Assembly (NCBI GenBank): GCA_964484505.1
Contig: CAZAFB010000003.1
Location: forward strand, 37,044-101,043
Reading direction: 5' to 3'
Origin: an uncultured Bdellovibrionales bacterium
GTDB lineage: Bacteria; Patescibacteriota; Minisyncoccia; Moranbacterales; GWC2-37-73
Length of the DNA stretch: 64,000 bases
How positions within the stretch are numbered: the stretch's first letter is position 1; each line of letters begins with the position of its first letter. Position numbers and translations under genes: made by a program. The notes beneath the pieces were generated by a model that made no database searches, was not told where the DNA came from, and saw only the letters and a list, made by a program, of their open reading frames with translations. This document shows positions 844 to 57,270 of the stretch, one piece after another.

Positions 844-940
844 AAGAACCACTGATTAGCACATGAACACACATGATTTCACTGATATAAATACAAATCA
901 TGTGTAATCAGGATAATCAAGTGTTAATCAGTGGTTCTGA
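844..940. repeat. Palindromic element family A, gene-less copy 1. Termini are AGAACCACTGATTAGCACATG and its reverse complement.
   Basis: Left end AGAACCACTGATTAGCACATG and right end TTAATCAGTGGTTCT are an imperfect inverted repeat. The same termini occur at 2421 and 15122/15609. Confidence 0.6.
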
Positions 941-997
941 TAATTAATTTAACGCATACACTATTTCTGCTCCCAAAACGAGAGAAAGCAGGGATAA

Positions 998-2417: not shown

Positions 2418-2420
2418 ATC

Positions 2421-2513
2421 AGAACCACTGATTAGCACATGATTTTTCTGATTACACATGATTGATTTTTATCAGTGAAATCATGTGTGTTCATGTGATA
2501 ATCAGTGGTTTGG
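2421..2513. repeat. Palindromic element family A, gene-less copy 2
   Basis: AGAACCACTGATTAGCACATGA at the left and TAATCAGTGGTTTGG at the right. Internal words are shared with copy 1 (CATGTGTAATCAG, TCACTGATA). Confidence 0.6.
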
Positions 2514-3007
2514 AATGACAGAAAGAGAAGTTCTTTTGAAAAAAATAAACGTCCGCATTCCAGCTTTCCGGAATGGGACGTTTACATAACAGGACGATCT
2601 TGCTATCGCTAGTCTGTCAAAAACCTATACTTTGCGAGAAGACGGAAAGCTGATGCAATGATCAATGTGAGGACAACGGTAGTCACGCATGTTTGAATGT
2701 GGGATCCGGTTGAAAGGTAGATTGATGGTGAAACTGTGGTGCTTATCGCTACTCCTCGTAGCAGGTTCATGGTTTCCTCCCTATGGTGCGTGTATAGTAG
2801 TTGAACATTGTCAACCGTCAACTATACACCCAAATTAACAATTTGTCAACCATCGAATTCTGATTATTGCATTATTGCCTTAAATAAGCCATAATTTAGT
2901 AATGAGGATTTAATTAAAAAACAGAAAGATACAGAATGAAGCAGAAAGACACAGAAATCATAAATTCCGTGTAGCTGTGTTATTCCGTAGTAAATCTGTG
3001 TAATTCC

Positions 3008-4522: not shown

Positions 4523-4609
4523 CACGAATTGATGACGAATGAAAACGAATCACGAATTCGTGTTTCGTGGAAATTCGTTCATACATTCGTGAAAATTTGT
4601 CAAAAATAA

Positions 4610-7003
<2,394 letters not shown>

Positions 7004-7060
7004 GTTGGATAAAATAATTAAGCGTATTTATTAAAAACGCTAAATTTATAATCAGTGTAT

Positions 7061-7220
7061 TTTGAATTCAAAATTCACCTAATTGCCTAATTCACCTAAT
7101 AAAATTTCAAATAATCAAATAAGACATATTTTAGATATTTGTGAATTTGGCATTTTATTAGATGAATTAGGTGAATTAGAAATTTGGTGAATTTGTAAAA
7201 ATGAATTTGGAATTATAAAC
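7061..7220. repeat. Palindromic element family B, copy 2
   Basis: AAATTCACCTAATTGCCTAATTCACCTAATAAAATTTCAAAT is followed by ATTTGGCATTTTATTAGATGAATTAGGTGAATT. It lies between atpD and atpC. Confidence 0.65.
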
Positions 7221-7666: not shown

Positions 7667-7818
7667 CCCTACAAATCTACAAATCAATTACCCGCATACC
7701 GGCGAGGCAGGCAAATATACAAATGTGCAAATACAGAAACTAGCGTTTTTGATAACGTTTATGATGTGTTTGTAAATTTGTATATTTGTATAAATTTGTA
7801 ATTTGTAGAACTAAAAAT

Positions 7819-12172: not shown

Positions 12173-12635
12173 AACACTGCTAAGTGAAAAATTGAGGCGT
12201 GGGAGATGTTAACTGACATCGACCGCGCCTTTTATTTTGCAAAGAAATTTCTTGAATTTCTTTGCACGCGGACAGATGCGGACGAGACGCAGAATTACGC
12301 GGAAAAATATCAAAACCGATTCGAATCTACGAATATCCGCAAATAAACTAAAAATGCAAAATACTTCGATACTCGAAAGTATCAAAGTATTTGACCAATT
12401 TATTTTTGAAGAAATTTTTTGATAAAAAAACAAAGCCATATGGCCTTGTCCTTATGTGCCGCGGGAGAGACATCTCACTCGCTCTGACTTTCAGTCTGAG
12501 CTCTTTGAAAACCCACGGTTTTCAAGACTTTCCTTCACGGGAAAACTCAGGTTTTCCCGACCCCTTTCCTGGTTCGAGTCTCCAAAGAAATAAAATTTAA
12601 AAGCCAACTATAAATAGTTGGCTTTTAAATTTCAG

Positions 12636-12719
12636 TACCGCGGGAGAGACTCGAACTCTCATGATATTGCTATCGCTGGATTTTGAGTCCAGTGCGTCTA
12701 CCAGTTCCGCCACCGCGGC
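12636..12719 (-). tRNA. tRNA-Leu(CAA), type II with a long variable arm
   Basis: Manual fold: acceptor GCCGCGG/CCGCGGT, D-loop GAACTGGTAGA, anticodon stem CTGGA/TCCAG with loop CTCAAAA, variable arm GATAGCAATATC, T-arm GAGAG-TTCGAGT-CTCTC. Confidence 0.75.
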
Positions 12720-12866
12720 GAGTATTGATATTTAGGCTATTCCAAGCCTTTTTACCTCTATATGATAAACGATTGAAAAGAGATTGTCAATGTGATAATA
12801 TAGATACGCGGTTAAGGTTATGGTAACGAGGCCAGTATCGTAAAAGGGTGATGATAACACGTCAAA

Positions 12867-13271
12867 ATGCAAGAACCAAAACAAACAATTAAAAGTTTTC
12901 GTGATTTGGAAGTTTATAGAAATACATATGATGCTAGTATTGTGGTTATGAAAGAAATAGTGCCGTTGCTTCCGGATTCGGAAAAATATGATCTTAAAGA
13001 TCAATTATCCAGATCAAGCAAAGCTGTTCCGCGGCTCATTGCTGAGGGTTATGCAAAAAGACATCAGAAAGCAGGATTCCAAAAATATCTAGACGATGCC
13101 ATGGGAGAATGCAATGAGACCATAGTTGGACTTGAACAATGTTGTGATATTTATGATATCAATAAAGAAAAATGCCAAAAATTAATTGACACATATGATA
13201 AGTCTGGAAGACAATTATACAGATTGTCAGAAGCATGGAGTCGATTTAAAGACGGAAGACGTAACCATTAA
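12867..13271 (+). CDS. Four-helix-bundle protein (23S rRNA intervening-sequence protein family)
   Basis: FRDLEVYR ... DLKDQLSRSSKAVPRLIAEGYAKRHQKAGFQKYLDDAMGECNETIVGLE matches the IVS four-helix-bundle family. It is flanked by an imperfect inverted repeat, GGTTATGGTAACGAG and ATCGTTACCGTTACCC. Confidence 0.7.
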   Translation: MQEPKQTIKSFRDLEVYRNTYDASIVVMKEIVPLLPDSEKYDLKDQLSRSSKAVPRLIAEGYAKRHQKAGFQKYLDDAMGECNETIVGLEQCCDIYDINKEKCQKLIDTYDKSGRQLYRLSEAWSRFKDGRRNH

Positions 13272-13313
13272 ACGAAACGGGCATCGTTACCGTTACCCTT
13301 TGACGAAGCAAGT

Positions 13314-14084: not shown

Positions 14085-14213
14085 TTTTTTTATAGTACTT
14101 TCTCTACGAAGTGCGAACAGGTACGAATGTACAAATGTGTTTATCGATGTTTCGTAATTTCGTATGGTTCATAATTCATAGAGTGAAAATTTAACTATTC
14201 AAAACTATTTTCT

Positions 14214-15137
14214 ATGGCTGCTCAAAATTTTGGTCTCGGCAGGGGATTATCATCACTTATACCTAACGCAGGCACTGCGCCACAGACAGATGCGCCGGTA
14301 GGAAAACGTCCCGTGATCGGCGAAGATGATTCGATTCGCGGTGACAAATATGTCGTGGAAATCGATATTGACTCAATTGTGCCAAATCCGCAACAGCCGC
14401 GCATCCGTTTTGACGAGGAAAAATTGGCCGACCTGGCTTCATCAATCAAAACACATGGAATCATTCAGCCGTTAATAGTAAGTCGCGATGGCAATCAATA
14501 TGAAATTATTGCCGGTGAGCGTCGTTATCAGGCGAGCAAAATTGCCGGACTGAAGAAATTGCCGGTGATTGTTCGTGAAGCCGGGGAATTAGAGAAGCTT
14601 GAGTTGGCGATAATCGAAAATATTCAACGTCATGACCTTAATGCAATTGAAGAGGCGAAAGCATATCAAAAATTGATAGATGAATACCAAATGAATCAGG
14701 AGGAGGTTGCTTTCAAGATGGGGAAGAGTCGCAGCTTGGTAGCTAATAAAGTGCGTTTGTTGTCGCTGCCTGTGGAAATTCAACGGGCGCTTATTGAAGG
14801 CAGGATTACCGAGGGTCATGCAAAGGCGATTTTGGCAATTTCCAACCCTGAAAAACAACGCGCTCTATATGAACTTATTCTCAGAGATAATTTGACCGTA
14901 CGCCAAACTGAAGACAAGACCAAAGATATTTCGGTCAAACCGCATAAACGTGTCGTCAATGTCGACCCTGCATTAAAAGAAATTGAAGAAACTCTGATTG
15001 GCGCTCTTGGCACGAAAGTTAAAATTTCCAAAGCCGGCAATGGCGGGAAAATCGTGATTGAATATTATTCGCAAGAAGATTTGGATGCGCTACTAAATAA
15101 GATACGAACCACTGAAAATATAAGAACCACTGATTAG
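14214..15137 (+). CDS. parB: Chromosome partitioning protein ParB/Spo0J
   Basis: GLGRGLSSLIP, the ParB box IAGERRYQASKIAG and an HTH. The last codons and the TAG stop lie inside the repeat-family-A terminus. Confidence 0.9.
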   Translation: MAAQNFGLGRGLSSLIPNAGTAPQTDAPVGKRPVIGEDDSIRGDKYVVEIDIDSIVPNPQQPRIRFDEEKLADLASSIKTHGIIQPLIVSRDGNQYEIIAGERRYQASKIAGLKKLPVIVREAGELEKLELAIIENIQRHDLNAIEEAKAYQKLIDEYQMNQEEVAFKMGKSRSLVANKVRLLSLPVEIQRALIEGRITEGHAKAILAISNPEKQRALYELILRDNLTVRQTEDKTKDISVKPHKRVVNVDPALKEIEETLIGALGTKVKISKAGNGGKIVIEYYSQEDLDALLNKIRTTENIRTTD

Positions 15138-15619
15138 CACGTGATTAAAATGATTGCACTGATCATAAATGCAGCATGAAAAAATATGTTGATGACAAAT
15201 ATTATAAATCTGAAGTAACCGGCAGCATAATTAACTGCGCGCAGAGAGTTCATCGCGAGCTAGGCAATGGATTCCAAGAAGTCATTTATCAAAAAGCTTT
15301 AGAAATAGAACTAAAACGTGCTGGCCTAAAGTTTGAACGAGAAAAGGAGATGGCTATTTATTATGAAAACGAACTCATCGGAACCAGGAGAGTTGATTTT
15401 CTTGTTGATAAGGATATTATGGTTGAACTAAAAGCAACTACAAAACTGGAAGACGTCAATGTGGCACAACTCATAAACTATATAGAGGCATATAAGGTAA
15501 AAGTAGGCCTGCTTATAAACTTCGGCTCAAAAAGTTTGGAAGTGAAACGTTATGTAAAATGATCCCTATCACGTGTAATCAGGGAAATCAGTGCTAATCA
15601 GTGGTTCTCTAGTGGTTCT
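15122..15619. mobile_element. Family A element carrying a GxxExxY (PD-(D/E)xK-like) gene between 21-bp terminal inverted repeats
   Basis: Left end AGAACCACTGATTAGCACGTG (15123-15143). Right end CAGTGCTAATCAGTGGTTCTC (15589-15609), plus a partial second copy TAGTGGTTCT. 19 of 21 positions match as a reverse complement. Confidence 0.55.
15176..15562 (+). CDS. GxxExxY family protein (PD-(D/E)xK nuclease-like fold)
   Basis: NGFQEVIYQKALEIELKRAGLKFEREKEMAIYYENELIGTRRVDFLVDKDIMVELKA ... GLLINFG matches the GxxExxY family. Confidence 0.75.
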   Translation: MKKYVDDKYYKSEVTGSIINCAQRVHRELGNGFQEVIYQKALEIELKRAGLKFEREKEMAIYYENELIGTRRVDFLVDKDIMVELKATTKLEDVNVAQLINYIEAYKVKVGLLINFGSKSLEVKRYVK

Positions 15620-19542: not shown

Positions 19543-19672
19543 AATGCTAATTGTTGCTAATGATAAATACGAATGAACGCTAATAATATATGCTAATTAT
19601 TGCAAATAAATAAATGTGAATGAGTTTACTTTTCAGCAGCTTTTGTGTTTATGATTTGCGAAAATTAGCATG

Positions 19673-21935: not shown

Positions 21936-22079
21936 AGTTCTATAAATTACAAATTGTTTACAAATTATTCTATATTAAGTATCCTTTTATATCTTACACC
22001 TTGTGATGTTATATTTACCAGTAAGGCAAGGTCGGTGGCATCTTTTTTGTATATTTGTATTGATTTGTAATTTGTAGGT

Positions 22080-31010: not shown

Positions 31011-31137
31011 TTTGCTGCCTGCAGTGAACCCCTGTGGCTTGCTGTGCATAACTAAGCGCTTCTTTGATGAAATAGTTTGGTATATAATGTATTTGTGGTC
31101 TAAATAAAAATATTTAGAGAAAAATTAAACCAAAAAT

Positions 31138-33190: not shown

Positions 33191-33308
33191 CATGCAATGA
33201 ACCCTTGCGGTTTGCTGTGGATAACTCGTTAACTTTTTTTTCGCAGCCTTTTGTTGTATAATAAGCCTATAATAATAAAAAAATATTTATAAAAAATAAA
33301 CCAAAATT

Positions 33309-36146: not shown

Positions 36147-36415
36147 AAGGATATTAAATCGGGGTTGTTAACTGTGGATAACTATAAAAAAAGGCTTTAT
36201 TAAGGGAAAATAATCTCTTATCTTTAGGTTAACTTTGCTAATGTTGACAAGTTTTGGCTTGTTTGATATCATATCCATACGTTCTAAAAAACAATATAAC
36301 GCAAAGATAGATACAAGAGGTTTGCCAAGGTGATTGCAAGCATTTGGATAGAATTCCGGCGAGTCACCCTCTCTTTTTGGGTTGGCGTTAAACAGACAAT
36401 ATTTTGCAATAAAAT

Positions 36416-36634
36416 ATGAGTTCAAACAAAGAACTGATCAAACTGGAAGGAACTGTAGTGGAGACGTTGCCAAGCACTACTTTTCGCGTGAAATTGGACA
36501 ACGGGCATGAAGTCTTGGCGCACATTTCAGGAAGGATGCGAGTGAATTATATCCGCTTGCTTCCTGGTGATAGGGTGCTGCTGGAAATGAGCCCCTATGA
36601 TTTAACCAAGGGGAGAGTGATTCAACGAATGTAA
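36416..36634 (+). CDS. infA: Translation initiation factor IF-1
   Basis: S1-like OB fold; 72 aa. Confidence 0.9.
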
Positions 36635-36729
36635 AATTAAAGGAAAAACGCAGAAGAAAACAGAAAAACACAGAGACACAGAATTTCAGTGTCATTCTGC
36701 AAGCTTCTGTGTAATTCTGTAATAGCTAT

Positions 36730-36843
36730 ATGAAAGTACGAGCATCAGTGAAAAAAATATGTGCCAAGTGCAAGATAGTAAAGCGCAGAGGAAAACTCTA
36801 TGTGATTTGCGTTACTCCTAAGCACAAGCAACGCCAAGGATAA
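36730..36843 (+). CDS. rpmJ: 50S ribosomal protein L36
   Basis: Manual translation [37 protein letters not shown], 37 aa with the C-x2-C...C...H zinc ribbon. It is below the ORF-track length cutoff. Confidence 0.85.
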
Positions 36844-36951
36844 AAATCGCGAATTGACGCAAATGGAATCGCGAATAATCGCGAATATATCAGCGGTGGT
36901 TATTAGTGAATATTGGAGATAAATTAGTGTAAATTAGTGATTTATAAAATT
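36844..36951 (+). repeat. r-protein leader repeat copy 1 (CGCGAAT and AATTAGTG words)
   Basis: AATCGCGAAT x3, then ATAAATTAGTGTAAATTAGTGATTTATAAAATT immediately before the rpsM ATG. Confidence 0.7.
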
Positions 36952-37338
36952 ATGGTACGTATCGCAGGAATAAATTTGCCGGACGAAAAGCGCATTGACA
37001 TCGCGCTTACCTATATATACGGCATCGGAGACACGACAAGTAATCGCATTTTGGAAGGTTTGGGAATCGACAAGTCTTTGCGCACCAAGGATCTGAGCGC
37101 TGACCAAGCAAACAAGATCCGCGAAGAGGTGGAAAAGAAATATCGCGTGGAAGGAGAACTCAAACATGAGGTAAAGATGAACATCAAACGTCTCAAGGAA
37201 ATTGGTTGCTATCGTGGCTCACGCCATCAGAAAGGTCTTCCGGTAAACGGACAGCGCACCAAAACCAATAGTCGCACCGTTCGCGGTAATGTTCGTCGCA
37301 CGATGGGAAGCGGCCGCAGATCGGAATCTAAGACATAA
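36952..37338 (+). CDS. rpsM: 30S ribosomal protein S13
   Basis: MVRIAGINLP N-terminus. Confidence 0.9.
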   Translation: MVRIAGINLPDEKRIDIALTYIYGIGDTTSNRILEGLGIDKSLRTKDLSADQANKIREEVEKKYRVEGELKHEVKMNIKRLKEIGCYRGSRHQKGLPVNGQRTKTNSRTVRGNVRRTMGSGRRSESKT

Positions 37339-37445
37339 TGATAAAAATCGCGAATCGACTCTAATATAGTCTCGAATAATCGCGAATGTTTTATTAGGGA
37401 TAATTAGTGAATTAATTCGTGTTGATTAGAGATTCATATCATCAT
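37339..37445 (+). repeat. r-protein leader repeat copy 2
   Basis: AAATCGCGAATCGACTCTAATATAGTCTCGAATAATCGCGAATG ... ATAATTAGTGAATTAATTCGTGTTGATTAGAGATTC. Confidence 0.7.
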
Positions 37446-37925
37446 ATGGCAGAAGAAAATAAGACAACAGAAGAAGTGATGGAAAAAGTCGAGGTTGCAA
37501 CCGAAGCTCCTGCTGAAGAAATTCAGACTCAGGAAACTGCTGCGGAAGCTAAGAAAAAAAAGAAGAAGCTCAAAAGGCAAATTTTGAAGGGGCAGGCTCA
37601 TATCCATTGCACATACAATAACACCAAGGTTGCTTTGTCTGACATTAATGGTTCTATTCTTGGCTGGTCAAGTTCCGGCCTGCTCGGTTTCAAAGGAGCA
37701 AAGAAAGCTACTCCCTATGCTGCAGCGCAGGTGGTTGCCGATGTGTCGGAAAAGGTGAAGAAATATGGCTTACAAGAATTGGAAGTATATGTGAAAGGTG
37801 TCGGTAGCGGAAGAGAATCTTCAATTAGAGCTTTGGCTAACCGCGGTTTTGAACTGGTTTCAATCAAGGACATTACTCCGATCCCGCACAACGGATGTAA
37901 GGCAAAGAAACCTCGTAGAGTCTAG
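37446..37925 (+). CDS. rpsK: 30S ribosomal protein S11 with a Glu/Lys-rich N-terminal extension
   Basis: S11 core HIHCTYNNTKVALSD ... GFKGAKKATPYAA after an approximately 45 aa acidic/K-rich tail. Confidence 0.9.
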   Translation: MAEENKTTEEVMEKVEVATEAPAEEIQTQETAAEAKKKKKKLKRQILKGQAHIHCTYNNTKVALSDINGSILGWSSSGLLGFKGAKKATPYAAAQVVADVSEKVKKYGLQELEVYVKGVGSGRESSIRALANRGFELVSIKDITPIPHNGCKAKKPRRV

Positions 37926-38032
37926 AGGATATCAGTCGCGAATCGACACTAATTAGTCTCGAATAATCGCGAATGTGAATTTATTAGAGATAATTAGTGA
38001 TAAATTAGTGTAAATTAGAGATTTATAACATT
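37926..38032 (+). repeat. r-protein leader repeat copy 3
   Basis: GGATATCAGTCGCGAATCGACACTAATTAGTCTCGAATAATCGCGAATG ... GATAAATTAGTGTAAATTAGAGATTTATAACATT, then ATG. Confidence 0.7.
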
Positions 38033-38665
38033 ATGGCACGTGATTTAGGATCAAAATGCAAGAAATGCCGTCGCGCATCAGAAAAACTCTTCCTTAAGGG
38101 TGAACGTTGTGCTTCTCCCAAGTGCGCTATGGTCAGAAGGCCATATGCTCCGGGAGCGCATGGTAAAAGTGTTTCCAGAGGCGCAAGTGAATATGGCAAA
38201 CAGTTGGCAATGAAACAAAAAATCAAGCGCATCTATGGTGTGCTCGAAAGGCAATTCCGCAAGCATTATGAAGAAATCAGCGGCAAGCAAGGAGTTACCG
38301 GTGATTTGCTCATGGCTCGTTTGGAAATGCGTCTCGATAATGTGGTTCGCCGCATGGGATTTGCCAGCGCGCCGTCACTTGCAAGACAGTTGGTTAATCA
38401 TGGATCATTCATGGTTAACGGCAAGCGTGTCACTATTCCTTCCTATGAAGTGAAAATCGGTGATGTTATCTCCATCAATCCTTTGAAAGCTGAGAATGTA
38501 TATTTCAATAATCAAAAACAGTGGATCCAAAATAAAAAGGATGTTCCAGCTTGGCTTCTGCTGGATGGTGCGAAATTGGAAGGAAAAATCGTGTCTGTTC
38601 CAAGTCGCGAGGATGTAGGCGTGCACGTCGATCCTCAGATGGTAGTTGAATATTATTCTCGCTAA
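38033..38665 (+). CDS. rpsD: 30S ribosomal protein S4
   Basis: N-terminal zinc knuckle CKKCRR ... CASPKC and S4 domain. Confidence 0.9.
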   Translation: MARDLGSKCKKCRRASEKLFLKGERCASPKCAMVRRPYAPGAHGKSVSRGASEYGKQLAMKQKIKRIYGVLERQFRKHYEEISGKQGVTGDLLMARLEMRLDNVVRRMGFASAPSLARQLVNHGSFMVNGKRVTIPSYEVKIGDVISINPLKAENVYFNNQKQWIQNKKDVPAWLLLDGAKLEGKIVSVPSREDVGVHVDPQMVVEYYSR

Positions 38666-38739
38666 ATTTTTACTACAAACTAACTTCATAAGTAAACGTG
38701 TTCTTTGCGCCTGGGCGCGATCAGCATGTTCCAAAGGCT

Positions 38740-39720
38740 ATGCAGGGAGTATCGCTTCCTCAAAAACCAAAGTATATTCCTGTCGATGACCACAGCGGCA
38801 AGTTTGAAATCCTCGGATGCTATCCGGGATATGGCGCTACCTTGGGTAACGCCCTTCGTCGTGTGCTGCTCTCTTCTTTGGAAGGGGCTGCTGTCACTTC
38901 AGTTAAGATCAAAGGTGTTTCCCATGAATTTTCCACCATTAGTGGTGTAATGGAAGATGTGGTTCAGATTGTGCTTAATCTCAAAAAAATTCGCTTTAAG
39001 ATGTATTCAGACGAGCCGGTGAAAGTTTCTCTCAAATCAAAAGGGGAAGGTCCGGTGACTGCAGGCAGCATTGTTTGCCCTTCCAGCGTGGAAGTGGTAA
39101 ATGGCGAACAAATAATCGCAACCGTTACTGACAAGAAGACTGAACTGGAGATGGAATTGGAAGTAGGTAAGGGCTTGGGATATATTCCAATTGAACAACA
39201 GGAACGCCCGGATAAGGAAATCGGAGTTATTGCAATCGACGCGGTGTACACCCCGATTCGTCGTGTAAATTATGAAGTTGAGAACATGCGTGTAGGAAAG
39301 CGCACTGATTTCAATAAGATAACCTTGGAAATCGTAACCGATGGCAGCATTACGCCAGAAGAAGCGTTCGATAAGTCCGTGAGGATACTGATCGAGCAAT
39401 TCTCGACGCTGGCTCAAATCGAAGTCGTTTCCGAGAAGGCTGAAGAGGAAGAAGAAGTTAAAGAAGCAGAAGCAGTGAAAGAAACATCTTCTGAAAAAAA
39501 AGAGGAAGAGCAGGAGGATCCGCTGAAGCTAAAACTTGTTGATCTGAAGGGAATTTCCACCCGTACGGCAAATGTCCTGGAAATCCACAAGATCGTCAAG
39601 ATCAAGGACGTGGTCAAATTCACTGAAGAAAAACTTCTCGAACTGGAAGGAATGGGAGAGAAGGGAGCCAAGGAAATCAAGAAGGCGATTGGTGAATTCG
39701 GTCTTACATTAAAGCAATAA
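38740..39720 (+). CDS. rpoA: DNA-directed RNA polymerase alpha subunit
   Basis: Alpha NTD (GYGATLGNALRRVLLSS) and CTD. The 38740 start is chosen in frame with the longer ORF. Confidence 0.9.
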   Translation: MQGVSLPQKPKYIPVDDHSGKFEILGCYPGYGATLGNALRRVLLSSLEGAAVTSVKIKGVSHEFSTISGVMEDVVQIVLNLKKIRFKMYSDEPVKVSLKSKGEGPVTAGSIVCPSSVEVVNGEQIIATVTDKKTELEMELEVGKGLGYIPIEQQERPDKEIGVIAIDAVYTPIRRVNYEVENMRVGKRTDFNKITLEIVTDGSITPEEAFDKSVRILIEQFSTLAQIEVVSEKAEEEEEVKEAEAVKETSSEKKEEEQEDPLKLKLVDLKGISTRTANVLEIHKIVKIKDVVKFTEEKLLELEGMGEKGAKEIKKAIGEFGLTLKQ

Positions 39721-39835
39721 GGATATAAATCGCGAATCGACGCGGATTTAATCCCGAATTATCGCGAATAGCGATGCGAATTGATTCATTAGAGATTATT
39801 AGCGATAAATTAGTGTTGATTAGGGATTTAATTAT
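39721..39835 (+). repeat. r-protein leader repeat copy 4
   Basis: GGATATAAATCGCGAATCGACGCGGATTTAATCCCGAATTATCGCGAATAGCG ... GATAAATTAGTGTTGATTAGGGATTTAATTAT. Confidence 0.7.
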
Positions 39836-40201
39836 ATGAAACATAGAGTAACAGGAAGAAAATTTAGCAGAAAGAAAGGTCCGCGTGAGGCGATGATCAA
39901 GACTTTGCTCGGTAGCATTATTGTGCGTGAGCGCGTTACTACCACTGAGGCGAAAGCCAAGGAAGCAAAGCCAAAAATTGATCGTTTGATCACCAAAGCG
40001 AAAAAAATGAAAGCCGATCCAGCTAAGAGCACCGCAGTGATTCGCGATTTGCGTAAGCACTTGCCTTTGCCTGCTGTGAAGAAGCTTTCCGGAGAATTCC
40101 TGGATCGTTTCCGGGCTCGCCAAAGTGGCTATACCAGAATAACCAAGCTGGAGCAAAGAAAAAGCGATGGCGCAAGAATGGCCGTGATAGAATTCGTTTA
40201 A
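39836..40201 (+). CDS. rplQ: 50S ribosomal protein L17
   Basis: MKHRVTGRKFSRKKGPREAM. Confidence 0.9.
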   Translation: MKHRVTGRKFSRKKGPREAMIKTLLGSIIVRERVTTTEAKAKEAKPKIDRLITKAKKMKADPAKSTAVIRDLRKHLPLPAVKKLSGEFLDRFRARQSGYTRITKLEQRKSDGARMAVIEFV

Positions 40202-40308
40202 GATCGCGAATGATCACGAATAAAATTTCGCGAATTTACACGAATGACTTGCTGAAATTATTCGAGATTATTAATGATAAATTAGTGTAAATTAGCGAAT
40301 AAATTAAT
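40202..40308 (+). repeat. r-protein leader repeat copy 5 (more diverged)
   Basis: GATCGCGAATGATCACGAATAAAATTTCGCGAATTTACACGAATG ... GATAAATTAGTGTAAATTAGCGAATAAATTAAT. Confidence 0.65.
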
Positions 40309-40695
40309 ATGAAGAGACAATATCATTTATTTGATGCGAAAGGGAAGAGGCTGGGAAGACTGGCTACTGAAATCGCAACCGTTTTGAGCGGCAAAGGAAA
40401 AGTTGACTTTACCCCGCATATTGACGGAGGAGACACTGTGGTTGTGATTAATGCAGCTGAAATTGCAGTTACCGGAAACAAGATGACCGACAAGATATAT
40501 CACAGTTTCAGCGGTTATCCGGGTGGAATCACTTCAATCGCGCTGCGCGACCTGCTCAAGAAGGATGCTCGCAAAGTGATTCAAAACGCAGTATATGGCA
40601 TGCTTCCGAAAAACAAATTGCGCGACAAGATGATGACGCGTTTGTTTGTCTACGCTGATAGCGAGCACAAGCATGGAATAGACATTACACATTAA
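40309..40695 (+). CDS. rplM: 50S ribosomal protein L13
   Basis: L13 fold; 128 aa. Confidence 0.9.
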   Translation: MKRQYHLFDAKGKRLGRLATEIATVLSGKGKVDFTPHIDGGDTVVVINAAEIAVTGNKMTDKIYHSFSGYPGGITSIALRDLLKKDARKVIQNAVYGMLPKNKLRDKMMTRLFVYADSEHKHGIDITH

Positions 40696-40802
40696 GGATA
40701 TGAATCGCTAATCGACACGAATTTTATCTCGAATAATCGCGAATGAAATTCATTAGAGAAAATTAGCGATAAAATTAGCGTAAATTAGAGATTTATAACA
40801 TT
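40696..40802 (+). repeat. r-protein leader repeat copy 6
   Basis: GGATATGAATCGCTAATCGACACGAATTTTATCTCGAATAATCGCGAATG ... GATAAAATTAGCGTAAATTAGAGATTTATAACATT, then ATG. Confidence 0.7.
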
Positions 40803-41288
40803 ATGGCAGTAAAAGCAGTAAAAAAAGTTGAGAAAAAAGATGCGCCAAAGGCGGCGAAAACGGTAAAGGCGTCAGCAGCTTCTTCCAAAGAGAAATATTT
40901 TGCCGGTGTTGGAAGACGCAAAGCTTCCGTAGCGCAGGTCCGCATATATCAGCAAGAAGGTTCCGGCGAGGCTGATGTGATGATCAATGACCGCAAGATG
41001 AAAGACTATGTTCCCATGGTTAATTTGCAAACAACCGTGCTTGCACCAATGAGAGTGACTGGCACATTTGGCAAATTCCGCATGAGCGTGGTTGTTCGCG
41101 GTGGCGGTTTCAATGGACAAGCTGAAGCGATCCGCTTGGGACTTTCCCGCGCGCTGGTGGCATATGACGAAGCGCTCAAAAAAACGCTTCGTGACAATGG
41201 TTTCCTTACCCGCGATTCCCGCGCCGTAGAACGCAAGAAGCCGGGTCTCAAGAAGGCAAGACGTGCTCCACAGTGGGCTAAAAGATAG
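40803..41288 (+). CDS. rpsI: 30S ribosomal protein S9 with a Lys/Ala-rich N-terminal extension
   Basis: S9 core GGGFNGQAEAIRLGLSRAL ... KKARRAPQWAKR after an approximately 30 aa KxxA tail. Confidence 0.9.
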   Translation: MAVKAVKKVEKKDAPKAAKTVKASAASSKEKYFAGVGRRKASVAQVRIYQQEGSGEADVMINDRKMKDYVPMVNLQTTVLAPMRVTGTFGKFRMSVVVRGGGFNGQAEAIRLGLSRALVAYDEALKKTLRDNGFLTRDSRAVERKKPGLKKARRAPQWAKR

Positions 41289-41401
41289 AATATCTTTCAG
41301 CACAGTGTGGAAAGGAAAGGGGTCGGGAAAACCTGGGTTTTCCCGTGGCGGAAGTACTGAAACCGCTGGGTTTCAGGGAGCGAAGCGACTCCACAGTGGG
41401 C
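41279..41401. repeat. Hairpin-rich insert at the 3' end of rpsI, bounded by the 13-bp direct repeats CTCCACAGTGGGC
   Basis: Direct repeats at 41266-41278 and 41389-41401. Between them lie GGGAAAACCTGGGTTTTCCC and CTGAAACCGCTGGGTTTCAG hairpins. The 38-bp core recurs at 12533-12570 in inverted orientation. Confidence 0.55.
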
Positions 41402-41496
41402 GAAGCGTTAGGATACGAATTTTCGCGAATTGGGAAACGAATGTTCACGAATCGCGAATTTCACGAATACTCAGCAATACCAAGATTTATATACAA

Positions 41497-41523
41497 AAAA
41501 CGCCTTATTTGGGCGTTTTTTGG
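41497..41523 (+). terminator. Rho-independent terminator closing the r-protein cluster
   Basis: AAAACGCCTTATTTGGGCGTTTTTT. Confidence 0.75.
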
Positions 41524-41532
41524 CGTTTATGA

Positions 41533-41561
41533 TTGACTTTTTCACCAGATAGGTGTATAAT
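41533..41561 (+). promoter_or_regulatory. Sigma70-type promoter TTGACT-N17-TATAAT
   Basis: Perfect -35 and -10 with a 17-nt spacer about 80 nt upstream of the 41640 ORF. The ATTGACTTTTT context is the same as the promoter at 10266. Confidence 0.65.
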
Positions 41562-46440: not shown

Positions 46441-46555
46441 AATGCTCGCAACTTTATTTCCATATATTTCGTGCAACATATTTCTATATGTTTTTCGGGT
46501 GTTGGAAATAAATAGAAATACGAAGAAATAAGTAGAAATTAATTGTCAAAATGCA

Positions 46556-54727: not shown

Positions 54728-54897
54728 ATTAGGGCTTATGCGTTTACCAATTTTTCAGGTGTTTCAAAAAGCTCCACTTTTTGAGTAGCTTATGCCTTGT
54801 CTAAAGTCGAGCTTTGGGCAAAGTCAGAATTTCTAAACATATAGGTGTTATATTCGTACATTTGTATTTTTGTAACATTTTGTAATTTTATAGAACA

Positions 54898-57146: not shown

Positions 57147-57270
57147 TTTTGGAGTTATCCACAGAGAAAGGGTTGAGTGATTTTTGTTATAGTGATAAAA
57201 TATCACTATAATCCATAAAATATACCCCAGTTAAATGTTGTACTTCGTGCAATTTAACGGGGCAAGCAAC

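Follow-up and report, generated by a model that had tools for sequence, protein, structure and literature searches.

Leaders of a Moranbacteria ribosomal protein operon as probable copies, lacking an open reading frame, of an IVS-like hairpin element linked to GxxExxY nuclease genes

INTRODUCTION

The infA-rpsI operon of a Candidatus Moranbacteria genome, located in the 64-kb window analysed here (the whole stretch of DNA, 64,000 nt), raises a simple question: why should six of its ribosomal protein (r-protein) genes, rpsM, rpsK, rpsD, rplQ, rplM and rpsI, each be preceded by a copy of the same leader? A preliminary description of the sequence had noticed these copies and named as possible explanations per-gene regulation or processing, by an autoregulatory RNA motif or an RNase site, and a repeat family with strong insertion preference. 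Our results suggest that the leaders, referred to here as family 1, are probably copies without an open reading frame (ORF) of a hairpin element resembling the intervening sequences (IVSs) of 23S rRNA, the full form of which carries the gene for a GxxExxY PD-(D/E)XK nuclease of ~125 aa at the position of the loop.

Decades after they were discovered, it is still considered unclear where rRNA IVSs and their small ORFs (S23p, GxxExxY) come from and what they are for (PMC4990558), and PDDEXK_3 is listed as being of unknown function in a survey of the PD-(D/E)XK proteins (PMC3424549). The locus described here joins a GxxExxY nuclease, arms of short words at one-helical-turn spacing and ORF-less copies conserved like coding sequence, and it offers concrete candidate substrates both for the nuclease (the words) and for RNase III (the hairpins). 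It also indicates that some of the most streamlined genomes known tolerate, or need, about 110 additional nt for each cistron. In the literature on intergenic repeats of Patescibacteria and Moranbacteria and on GxxExxY/PDDEXK_3 we found no description of the element.

RESULTS AND DISCUSSION

Six related leaders lie within one transcription unit

The genes from infA to rpsI form a single transcription unit in which all six leaders are internal (Table 1). Gene identities were taken from Pfam labels on identical contigs, the operon sequence being identical between the window and the JGI contig Ga0248168_1000248, and the S4 homologues carry the labels Candidatus Moranbacteria or Patescibacteria. 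When the operon region was scanned, strong promoter-like sites were found only at 36244-36272, before infA, and at 41533-41561, after the terminator at 41494-41522, which places the leaders inside one unit. The promoter and terminator scans found no internal promoter or terminator in the leaders; the best promoter-like match near them scored 9/12 (40198-40226), and the region contained fewer such sites than its shuffles.

The preliminary description, which had reported six related leaders of about 105 bp, was confirmed. The copies are 107-115 nt long and their similarity is far above chance: the mean column identity of the six aligned leaders is 73%, the 20-mer AAATTAGTGTAAATTAGAGA, with up to three mismatches, occurs 5 times (0.01 expected), and AATCGCGAAT occurs 24 times (9.7 expected), clustered at the r-protein leaders. 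The limits of the set, 36844-40802, were exact. All leaders are in sense orientation, contain no ORF and start at the stop codon or 0-3 nt past it, running to the next ATG and filling the whole gap; the claim that each ends exactly at the ATG thus holds for all six. It was also correct that rpoA lacks the leader and has a spacer of its own, of 74 nt. The statement that every r-protein gene is preceded by one is true of the six genes but not of rpmJ, which is preceded in this genome by a hairpin of another word family. Leader 4 has the longest loop of the six and leader 5 is the most diverged copy.

Table 1. Positions of the operon, its leaders and related features. Coordinates refer to the window unless a relative is named; z, folding compared with shuffles; MFE, minimum free energy; UTR, untranslated region.
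Feature	Position	Strand	Remarks
Operon promoter-like site	36244-36272	+	TTGACA-17 nt-TATCAT with TG; only strong one upstream of the leaders
infA	36416-36634	+	from sequence and ORF reading
infA-rpmJ spacer hairpin	36635-36729	+	words ACAGAA / TTCTGT; z −5.09; kin to hairpin 2915-3007
rpmJ	36730-36843	+
Leader 1, rpmJ stop to rpsM ATG	36844-36951	+	108 nt; MFE −25.9 kcal/mol, z −3.06; CGAAT-type words in 5' arm, loop ~36888-36903, ATTAG-type words in 3' arm
rpsM	36952-37338	+
Leader 2, rpsM stop to rpsK ATG	37339-37445	+	107 nt; z −0.53
rpsK	37446-37925	+
Leader 3, rpsK stop to rpsD ATG	37926-38032	+	107 nt; arms 37930-37974 / 37983-38027, 45 nt, 71% complementary
rpsD	38033-38665	+
rpoA spacer	38666-38739
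rpoA	38740-39720	+
Leader 4, rpoA stop to rplQ ATG	39721-39835	+	115 nt; MFE −27.8 kcal/mol
rplQ	39836-40201	+
Leader 5, rplQ stop to rplM ATG	40202-40308	+	107 nt; nhmmer E 5e-17
rplM	40309-40695	+
Leader 6, rplM stop to rpsI ATG	40696-40802	+	107 nt; z −3.07; arms 40693-40747 / 40749-40803, 55 nt, 75% complementary
rpsI	40803-41288	+
Half element	41411-41463	+	rpsI 3' UTR; six CGAAT words of 5'-arm type, without partner arm
Terminator hairpin of infA-rpsI unit	41494-41522	+	11-nt arms, 100% complementary, T-run
ORF-bearing element, sister word family	15119-15612	+	5' arm (AGAACCACTGATTAGCACGTGA...), 3' arm (...AATCAGTGCTAATCAGTGGTTCT)
ORF-less sister-family copy, atpB to atpE	844-945	+	z −7.37
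ORF-less sister-family copy, directly after atpH	2418-2515	+	z −5.71
Other word hairpin	1290-1385
Other word hairpin	1868-2015
Other word hairpin	2915-3007
Other word hairpin	4523-4585
Other word hairpin	7040-7189
Other word hairpin	7667-7800
Other word hairpin	14085-14213
Other word hairpin	19543-19672	-
Other word hairpin	21936-22079	-
Other word hairpin	46441-46555
Other word hairpin	54840-54897
rpoA spacer, L013	6634-6720
rpoA spacer, L015	6637-6726
rpoA spacer, L016	6634-6734
rpoA spacer, L104			86-nt gap
ORF-bearing family-1 element, L049			rpmF, 5' arm, GxxExxY ORF, 3' arm, nusB ATG
ORF-bearing family-1 element, L162			NiFe hydrogenase large subunit, element, hypA
ORF-bearing family-1 element, L164			rpmF, element, nusB, rnc
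ORF-bearing family-1 element, L165			peptidase S11, element, mraY

Family-1 arms flank nuclease ORFs in relatives

In four relatives (L049, L162, L164 and L165) family-1 arms were found on both sides of a GxxExxY ORF, which occupies the position of the loop. In the last three, arms of 45-57 nt on each side are built of family-1 words and share the terminal GATTTATA..ATG with the leaders; when joined in silico they fold at −39.1, −28.7 and −19.0 kcal/mol, respectively. The window itself contains both forms of a sister family (CACTGATTAGCACATGA...), namely two ORF-less copies and one ORF-bearing element, the GxxExxY gene of which (15176-15562) encodes 128 aa and matches TIGR04256 (1e-39) and PDDEXK_3. 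Because family-1 arms flank GxxExxY ORFs, and because ORF-bearing and ORF-less sister copies occur together in the window, the six leaders are best understood as probable ORF-less forms of such an element; its IVS-like character is suggested by the Coxiella 23S rRNA IVS, which has the same plan.

The association of word arrays with this gene extends over several phyla, as all nine GxxExxY ORFs in the loci fetched (five phyla, among them Planctomycetota, Bacteroidota, Verrucomicrobiota and Patescibacteria) are flanked by them on both sides. The D-ExK and GxxExxY residues of the protein are invariant or nearly so, the catalytic acidic and lysine residues thus being retained. Its AlphaFold2 model (predicted local distance difference test score 91) was closest to DNA nucleases of the Cas4/RecB type, and a sequence search of the PDB gave no significant match. 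No transposase or REP-associated tyrosine transposase (RAYT) domain was detected among the window genes scanned (64 kb), leaving the GxxExxY nuclease as the sole candidate partner.

Further word hairpins occur in nearly every junction of atpBEFHAGDC, and also at parA-parB and dprA-topA. Each hairpin family has its own word of 6-11 nt, for example AATTCACCTAA/TTAGGTGAATT, ACAAAT/ATTTGT or TACGAA/TTCGTA. In the window and relatives these other families fold much more strongly than family 1, with a mean z of about −3.9, and 12 of 20 were unmatched in 200 shuffles.

ORF-less copies are concentrated at r-protein genes

To search for the family, species-representative genomes were scanned with a pattern and nhmmer was then applied; the scan pattern is degenerate and returned many single chance matches. 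Family-1 copies were present in about 20 Patescibacteria loci. Of 55 full ORF-less copies, about 44 stand before r-protein genes, and almost every copy is in sense orientation and ends at the ATG; the other downstream genes include mraY, parB and a few unknown genes. The leaders are restricted neither to this operon nor to r-protein genes. The preliminary description had proposed a search of the S10/spc clusters, and there the same leader was indeed present in four relatives (L081, L097, L090 and L048). In the first of these, Kiruna_bin-03023, the element precedes 11 of the 15 S10/spc genes, with Pfam-confirmed identities, and also rpmJ, rpsK, rpsD and rpsI; rpoA and rplQ are without it.

Multi-copy hairpins with three words of the same type per arm were noted in distant phyla (GCCACGAAT..CACGAAT..CACGAAT / ATTAGTG..ATTAGTG..ATTCGTGGC; GGAACACTAATC... 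/ ...GATTAGTGTTCC). They occur in Flavobacterium (L024, L042, L058, L059, L086, L102, L110 and L126), in Planctomycetota (L030, L036, L039, L060, L079, L023 and L026) and at further loci (L061, L078, L066 and L131), and their number in Flavobacterium looks above a rough chance estimate for the scan pattern. Some such hairpins directly flank GxxExxY genes, in L042, L063, L131, L027, L029 and L128.

Words rather than a helix are conserved

An alignment of 37 copies revealed four WCNCGAAT words in the 5' arm, a loop differing in sequence and in length (~5 to 25 nt) and four ATTAGNGW words in the 3' arm, the word spacing being 10, 12 and 10 nt in both arms. When both strands are read, the 8-mer ATT(C/A)GNGA is present in each arm, with an unconstrained N and a spacing of 10-12 bp. 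The 3' end, GATTTATAWCATT-ATG, is conserved and AU-rich (GAUUUAUAWCAUU-AUG). The element is an imperfect inverted repeat (arms of 45-55 nt, 71-75% complementarity), and the leader hairpins were only moderately better than shuffles (z −0.5 to −3.1). Sense folded better than antisense in 29 of 36 family-1 copies, a significant bias in copies that are not independent of one another; the other word families had no such strand bias (10 vs 11).

RNAalifold applied to 8 copies produced an out-of-register partial fold owing to the repeated words, and the full hairpin was then specified by hand. Across the 37 copies, 84-87% of the cells pair in register as compared with 30-45% in slid registers, although this is the level of column-shuffled controls. 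Covariation did not exceed that of shuffles either (0.066 vs 0.059 and 0.064 vs 0.062). The freely varying word positions pair in 8, 15, 7 and 3 of the copies (shuffle means of 8.0, 17.4, 12.8 and 4.8), and each of the four word pairs retains a G·A mismatch in 24-29 copies. Given the lack of covariation, the under-paired N positions and the retained mismatch, the alignment indicates that it is the words, and not the helix, that are conserved. A search with Rfam 15 yielded only two tRNAs in the window at the gathering threshold and nothing meaningful at E up to 5; the Alpha_RBS model (RF00140) scored 17.4 bits against a gathering threshold of 38. The structured leader backed by covariation that the preliminary description had envisaged was therefore not supported.

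Leaders are conserved between species and replaced in blocks

The 651 leader columns were invariant across seven strains of the same species, which are 98.4-99.7% identical. Between the window and Kiruna_bin-03023, orthologous leaders are 80-83% identical and the flanking proteins 62-77%, at a distance at which silent sites are saturated (0.19-0.34 at fourfold sites and 0.42 at third positions of conserved residues); the conservation of both leader arms equals that of the first and second positions of codons. The paralogues within the window are less alike (0.73) than these orthologues, so their similarity is explained neither by recent proliferation nor by strong homogenisation, and strong concerted evolution in this genome is not supported. 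Recent transfer of the leaders together with their flanks is not supported either, since silent sites beside the leaders are only slightly elevated, at 0.39-0.60, well short of the 0.80-0.83 of the leaders. From these comparisons every copy seems to be kept close to one shared consensus. This suggests constraint that is still at work, exerted by a conserved trans-acting partner, most obviously the cognate nuclease, and/or by a role in the host.

Within the species, however, the infA-rpmJ spacer has been swapped as a block: the window has the ACAGAA/TTCTGT hairpin, and five strains (L001, L003, L004, L006 and L009, compared with window positions 36560-36760) have a seventh family-1 copy. Variable columns among the conspecific strains amount to 6.8% in infA, 4.4% in rpmJ and 2.9% in rpsI and to <1% in the other genes, which suggests that the infA-rpmJ region may be a recombination tract imported from a diverged lineage. 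In L011, whose S4 is 94% identical, hairpins of the same size stand at the same six junctions with entirely different words; L013, an 84% relative, has family 1 at three junctions, and L015, a 75% relative, has short plain spacers. The junctions hold unrelated spacers in L011 and L015, and no direct repeat flanks the copies. The half element downstream of rpsI is kept in L013, where family-1 leaders are present, and missing in L011, where they are absent.

A separate observation concerns assembly. Four independent short-read assemblies of the same species as the window (L005, L007, L008 and L010) break inside leader 3, 27 nt before rpsD, and such repeats fragment metagenome-assembled genomes within the r-protein operons that are used as phylogenetic markers.

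Proposed origin of the leaders and alternative explanations

We propose that the words, either as DNA or within the folded strand, would be recognised by the cognate nuclease or by a different conserved factor, and that the element may have spread as a selfish unit relying on read-through transcription of strong, conserved operons, with ORF-less copies being retained as working intercistronic spacers. The leaders would be co-transcribed with the operon, and the hairpin that they form, of moderate stability, would probably be a target of RNase III cleavage like that of rRNA IVSs; an rnc gene is present in the related Moranbacteria contig L164. The conserved AU-rich 3' end could serve as an initiation region without a Shine-Dalgarno (SD) sequence for the downstream cistron, a role that fits the rarity of SD sequences in the window, where only ~5 of 67 starts (8365, 10397, 11096, 41640 and 50134) reach −7 kcal/mol or better in pairing with the anti-SD. 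Absence of an SD was rejected as a special feature of the leaders, most window genes being without one; the strong GGAGG starts belong mostly to hypothetical genes. On this evidence the leaders look like a selfish element that is now a fixed part of the operons rather than a classical regulatory leader.

Several points weigh against this account. Mobility, recognition of the words by the nuclease and cleavage by RNase III are each a proposal of ours. The family-1-type GxxExxY gene is absent from the 64-kb window, whose sole GxxExxY gene belongs to another word family, and neither a target-site duplication nor a clean empty site was found, the elements replacing whole spacers. The family-1 stem is weak, with two mismatches in each 8-nt word pair, and may be a poor substrate for RNase III. 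Long-term conservation of each copy is unexpected for a purely selfish relic and calls for a presumed 'domesticated' step, and the bias of ORF-less copies towards r-protein genes is explained only by an argument from their conserved, highly transcribed flanks.

One alternative is a dedicated cis-regulatory RNA leader, in which one conserved factor, an r-protein or another RNA-binding protein, binds the words in the mRNA ahead of each r-protein cistron and co-ordinates translation or stability, the GxxExxY ORF having been inserted secondarily. The association of ~80% of full copies with r-protein genes across many genomes, their strictly sense orientation, the conservation of the arms while silent sites are saturated and the better folding of the sense strand all favour it. 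However, there is neither covariation nor an Rfam match, the same arms surround a nuclease ORF beside hydrogenase, mraY and nusB genes, ORF-less copies also precede parB and mraY, the closely related L011 has other word families at the same six junctions, and analogous hairpins occur in the atp and parAB operons; we consider this explanation unlikely. Per-gene autoregulation in particular, one of the possibilities raised in the preliminary description, is unlikely because identical arms flank the nuclease ORF in the hydrogenase, mraY and rpmF-nusB contexts and because analogous hairpins of other word families fill the atp operon spacers; of its suggestions, a repeat family with strong insertion preference came closest to the evidence. 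Translational coupling is a weaker alternative, which we judge distinctly improbable. Here the hairpin would join the stop codon to the next AUG and hide the initiation region, so that only a ribosome terminating upstream could open it or be handed over, giving equimolar r-proteins. The element does span exactly stop to start, the sequence at its 5' end, TAATGATAT, is reverse-complementary to ATATCATTA, located immediately ahead of the start codon 'TG', SD sequences are rarely used, and coupling by RNA unfolding is an established model (PMC12548453); yet the basal helix is paired in only ~77% of cells and without covariation, coupling is most efficient at short spacing and correlated negatively with structure just past the stop (PMC12548453), and the conservation of words over pairs, the half element and the ORF-bearing forms would be left unexplained.

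Arrays of DNA operators or promoters, with eight ATTMGNGA sites on one helix face bound by a transcription factor or nucleoid protein for per-gene control, would fit the ATT(C/A)GNGA words of both arms, their 10-12 bp spacing and their unconstrained N. This seems very improbable, as the leaders lack promoter-like sites (9/12 at best, and fewer than in shuffles), a loop of ~5 to 25 nt breaks the helical phasing between the arms, and the arms differ systematically (C-type left, A-type right), which a symmetric DNA binder would not need. A TIGR (tandem interspaced guide RNA) array was rejected by definition (PMC12045711), the elements being single hairpins without variable spacers; no Tas-like gene was found among the annotated neighbours. 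A bolder reading, which we consider doubtful, is that GxxExxY nucleases and helically spaced arrays of 8-nt words might constitute an undescribed cross-phylum protein-plus-repeat system, ORF-less arrays of which were recruited in Moranbacteria and relatives as a universal leader of almost all r-protein cistrons, r-protein mRNAs being jointly processed or gated by a word-recognising nuclease or binding protein. If true, this would represent a new post-transcriptional regulon for ribosome synthesis and give a function to the long-unexplained ORFs of rRNA IVSs.

Comparison with known repeat elements

The 23S rRNA IVSs of Coxiella burnetii, Leptospira and Salmonella are likewise inverted-repeat hairpins, situated in a strongly transcribed, ribosome-related gene, and a small ORF of the S23p (TIGR02436, four-helix bundle) or GxxExxY kind can be present in their loop; in the window, inverted repeats surround the S23p ORF as well as the GxxExxY ORF. 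In Coxiella the IVS ends in inverted repeats, contains an ORF in its loop, is excised by RNase III and has, in its 5' arm, tandem heptamer words (GACAGAT) that vary in number between strains (PMC4990558). In contrast, the leaders lie in intercistronic mRNA spacers rather than in an rRNA helix (the window contains no rRNA), have no ORF, form weaker stems with periodic mismatches and are conserved at orthologous sites between species, and RNase III excision, a feature of IVSs, is for the leaders a presumption.

The gene for the 23S rRNA IVS protein (TIGR02436, four-helix bundle) was located at 12867-13271, between a tRNA (12636-12719) and parA. Inverted repeats (GGTAACGA...CGTAAAAGGGTGA...CGTCAAA / TCGTTACCGTTACCCTTTGACG) enclose the gene at 12810-13313, an IVS-like arrangement outside rRNA.

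The leaders also resemble repetitive extragenic palindromes (REP/REPIN), enterobacterial repetitive intergenic consensus (ERIC) and Correia elements, which are like miniature inverted-repeat transposable elements (MITEs): all are imperfect palindromes of ~100 nt, with many copies and several families per genome, occur in transcribed intergenic regions of operons and include non-autonomous partners of a protein-coding element. As in MITEs and REPINs, dispersed copies in the window share their termini with a protein-coding element (15119-15612 vs 844-945 and 2418-2515). They differ in their candidate partner, a Cas4-like PD-(D/E)XK nuclease instead of a RAYT or insertion sequence transposase (none occurred among the window genes scanned), in arms of 3-4 tandem 8-nt words at helical spacing without a detected target-site duplication, in filling the spacer exactly from stop to ATG and in the ~80% association with r-protein genes.

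In phage T7 early mRNA, related irregular RNase III processing hairpins lie between the cistrons of one polycistronic mRNA; the leaders differ in their cellular host, unrelated sequence and link to a nuclease ORF, and in that their cleavage is a prediction. Autoregulatory r-protein leaders such as Alpha_RBS (RF00140), the S4-binding pseudoknot at rpsM, also stand ahead of r-protein cistrons of the alpha operon, but of the known ones there is a single copy per operon, which imitates a site in rRNA and shows covariation, whereas the element described here precedes nearly every cistron and does not covary. Taken together, these comparisons place the element within the known IVS- or MITE-like palindromic kind, the novelty being its unusual, conserved tie to nearly all r-protein cistrons in a lineage of the candidate phyla radiation.

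Other features of the region

The leader upstream of infA (36244-36415) is conserved in five genomes, one of them without hairpin spacers, and consists, in order, of the TTGACA-17-TATCAT promoter, ATACGYT, an AGAGG...CCCTCT stem and a T-run. The stem and T-run look like an attenuator, and this segment, which had no Rfam match, may be the operon's real regulatory leader. The rpoA spacer measures 74-101 nt and contains a GC-rich hairpin in most relatives examined, including a relative without word hairpins, and seems to be a leader of separate and earlier origin; in L011 only 30 nt lie between the S4 gene and rpoA.

A GC-rich segment of 35 nt (GGAAAGGGGTCGGGAAAACCTGGGTTTTCCCG...) at 41313-41347 is repeated in inverted orientation at 12536-12570 with 97% identity. 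The former copy lies in a structured 3' UTR after rpsI and is kept in L013; the latter is near the tRNA/S23p region. DnaA-box-like motifs, TGTGGATAA / TTATCCACA, were noted at ~31025-31054, 33197-33226, 36161-36183 and 57154-57164. Two of them lie within a common motif, AACCC.TG.GG.TTGCTGTG.ATAACT, situated just past terminator hairpins and upstream of the genes for proteins of 662 and 925 aa. Finally, the longest atpF ORF opens with a TTG at 1343, where there is no ATG, within a word hairpin at 1309-1378 (GAACAATGAACAAAGAACAGTGAACA / TGTTCATTGATCACTGTTCATTGATC); translation of atpF may actually begin farther downstream, or the 3' arm of the hairpin may belong to the coding sequence.

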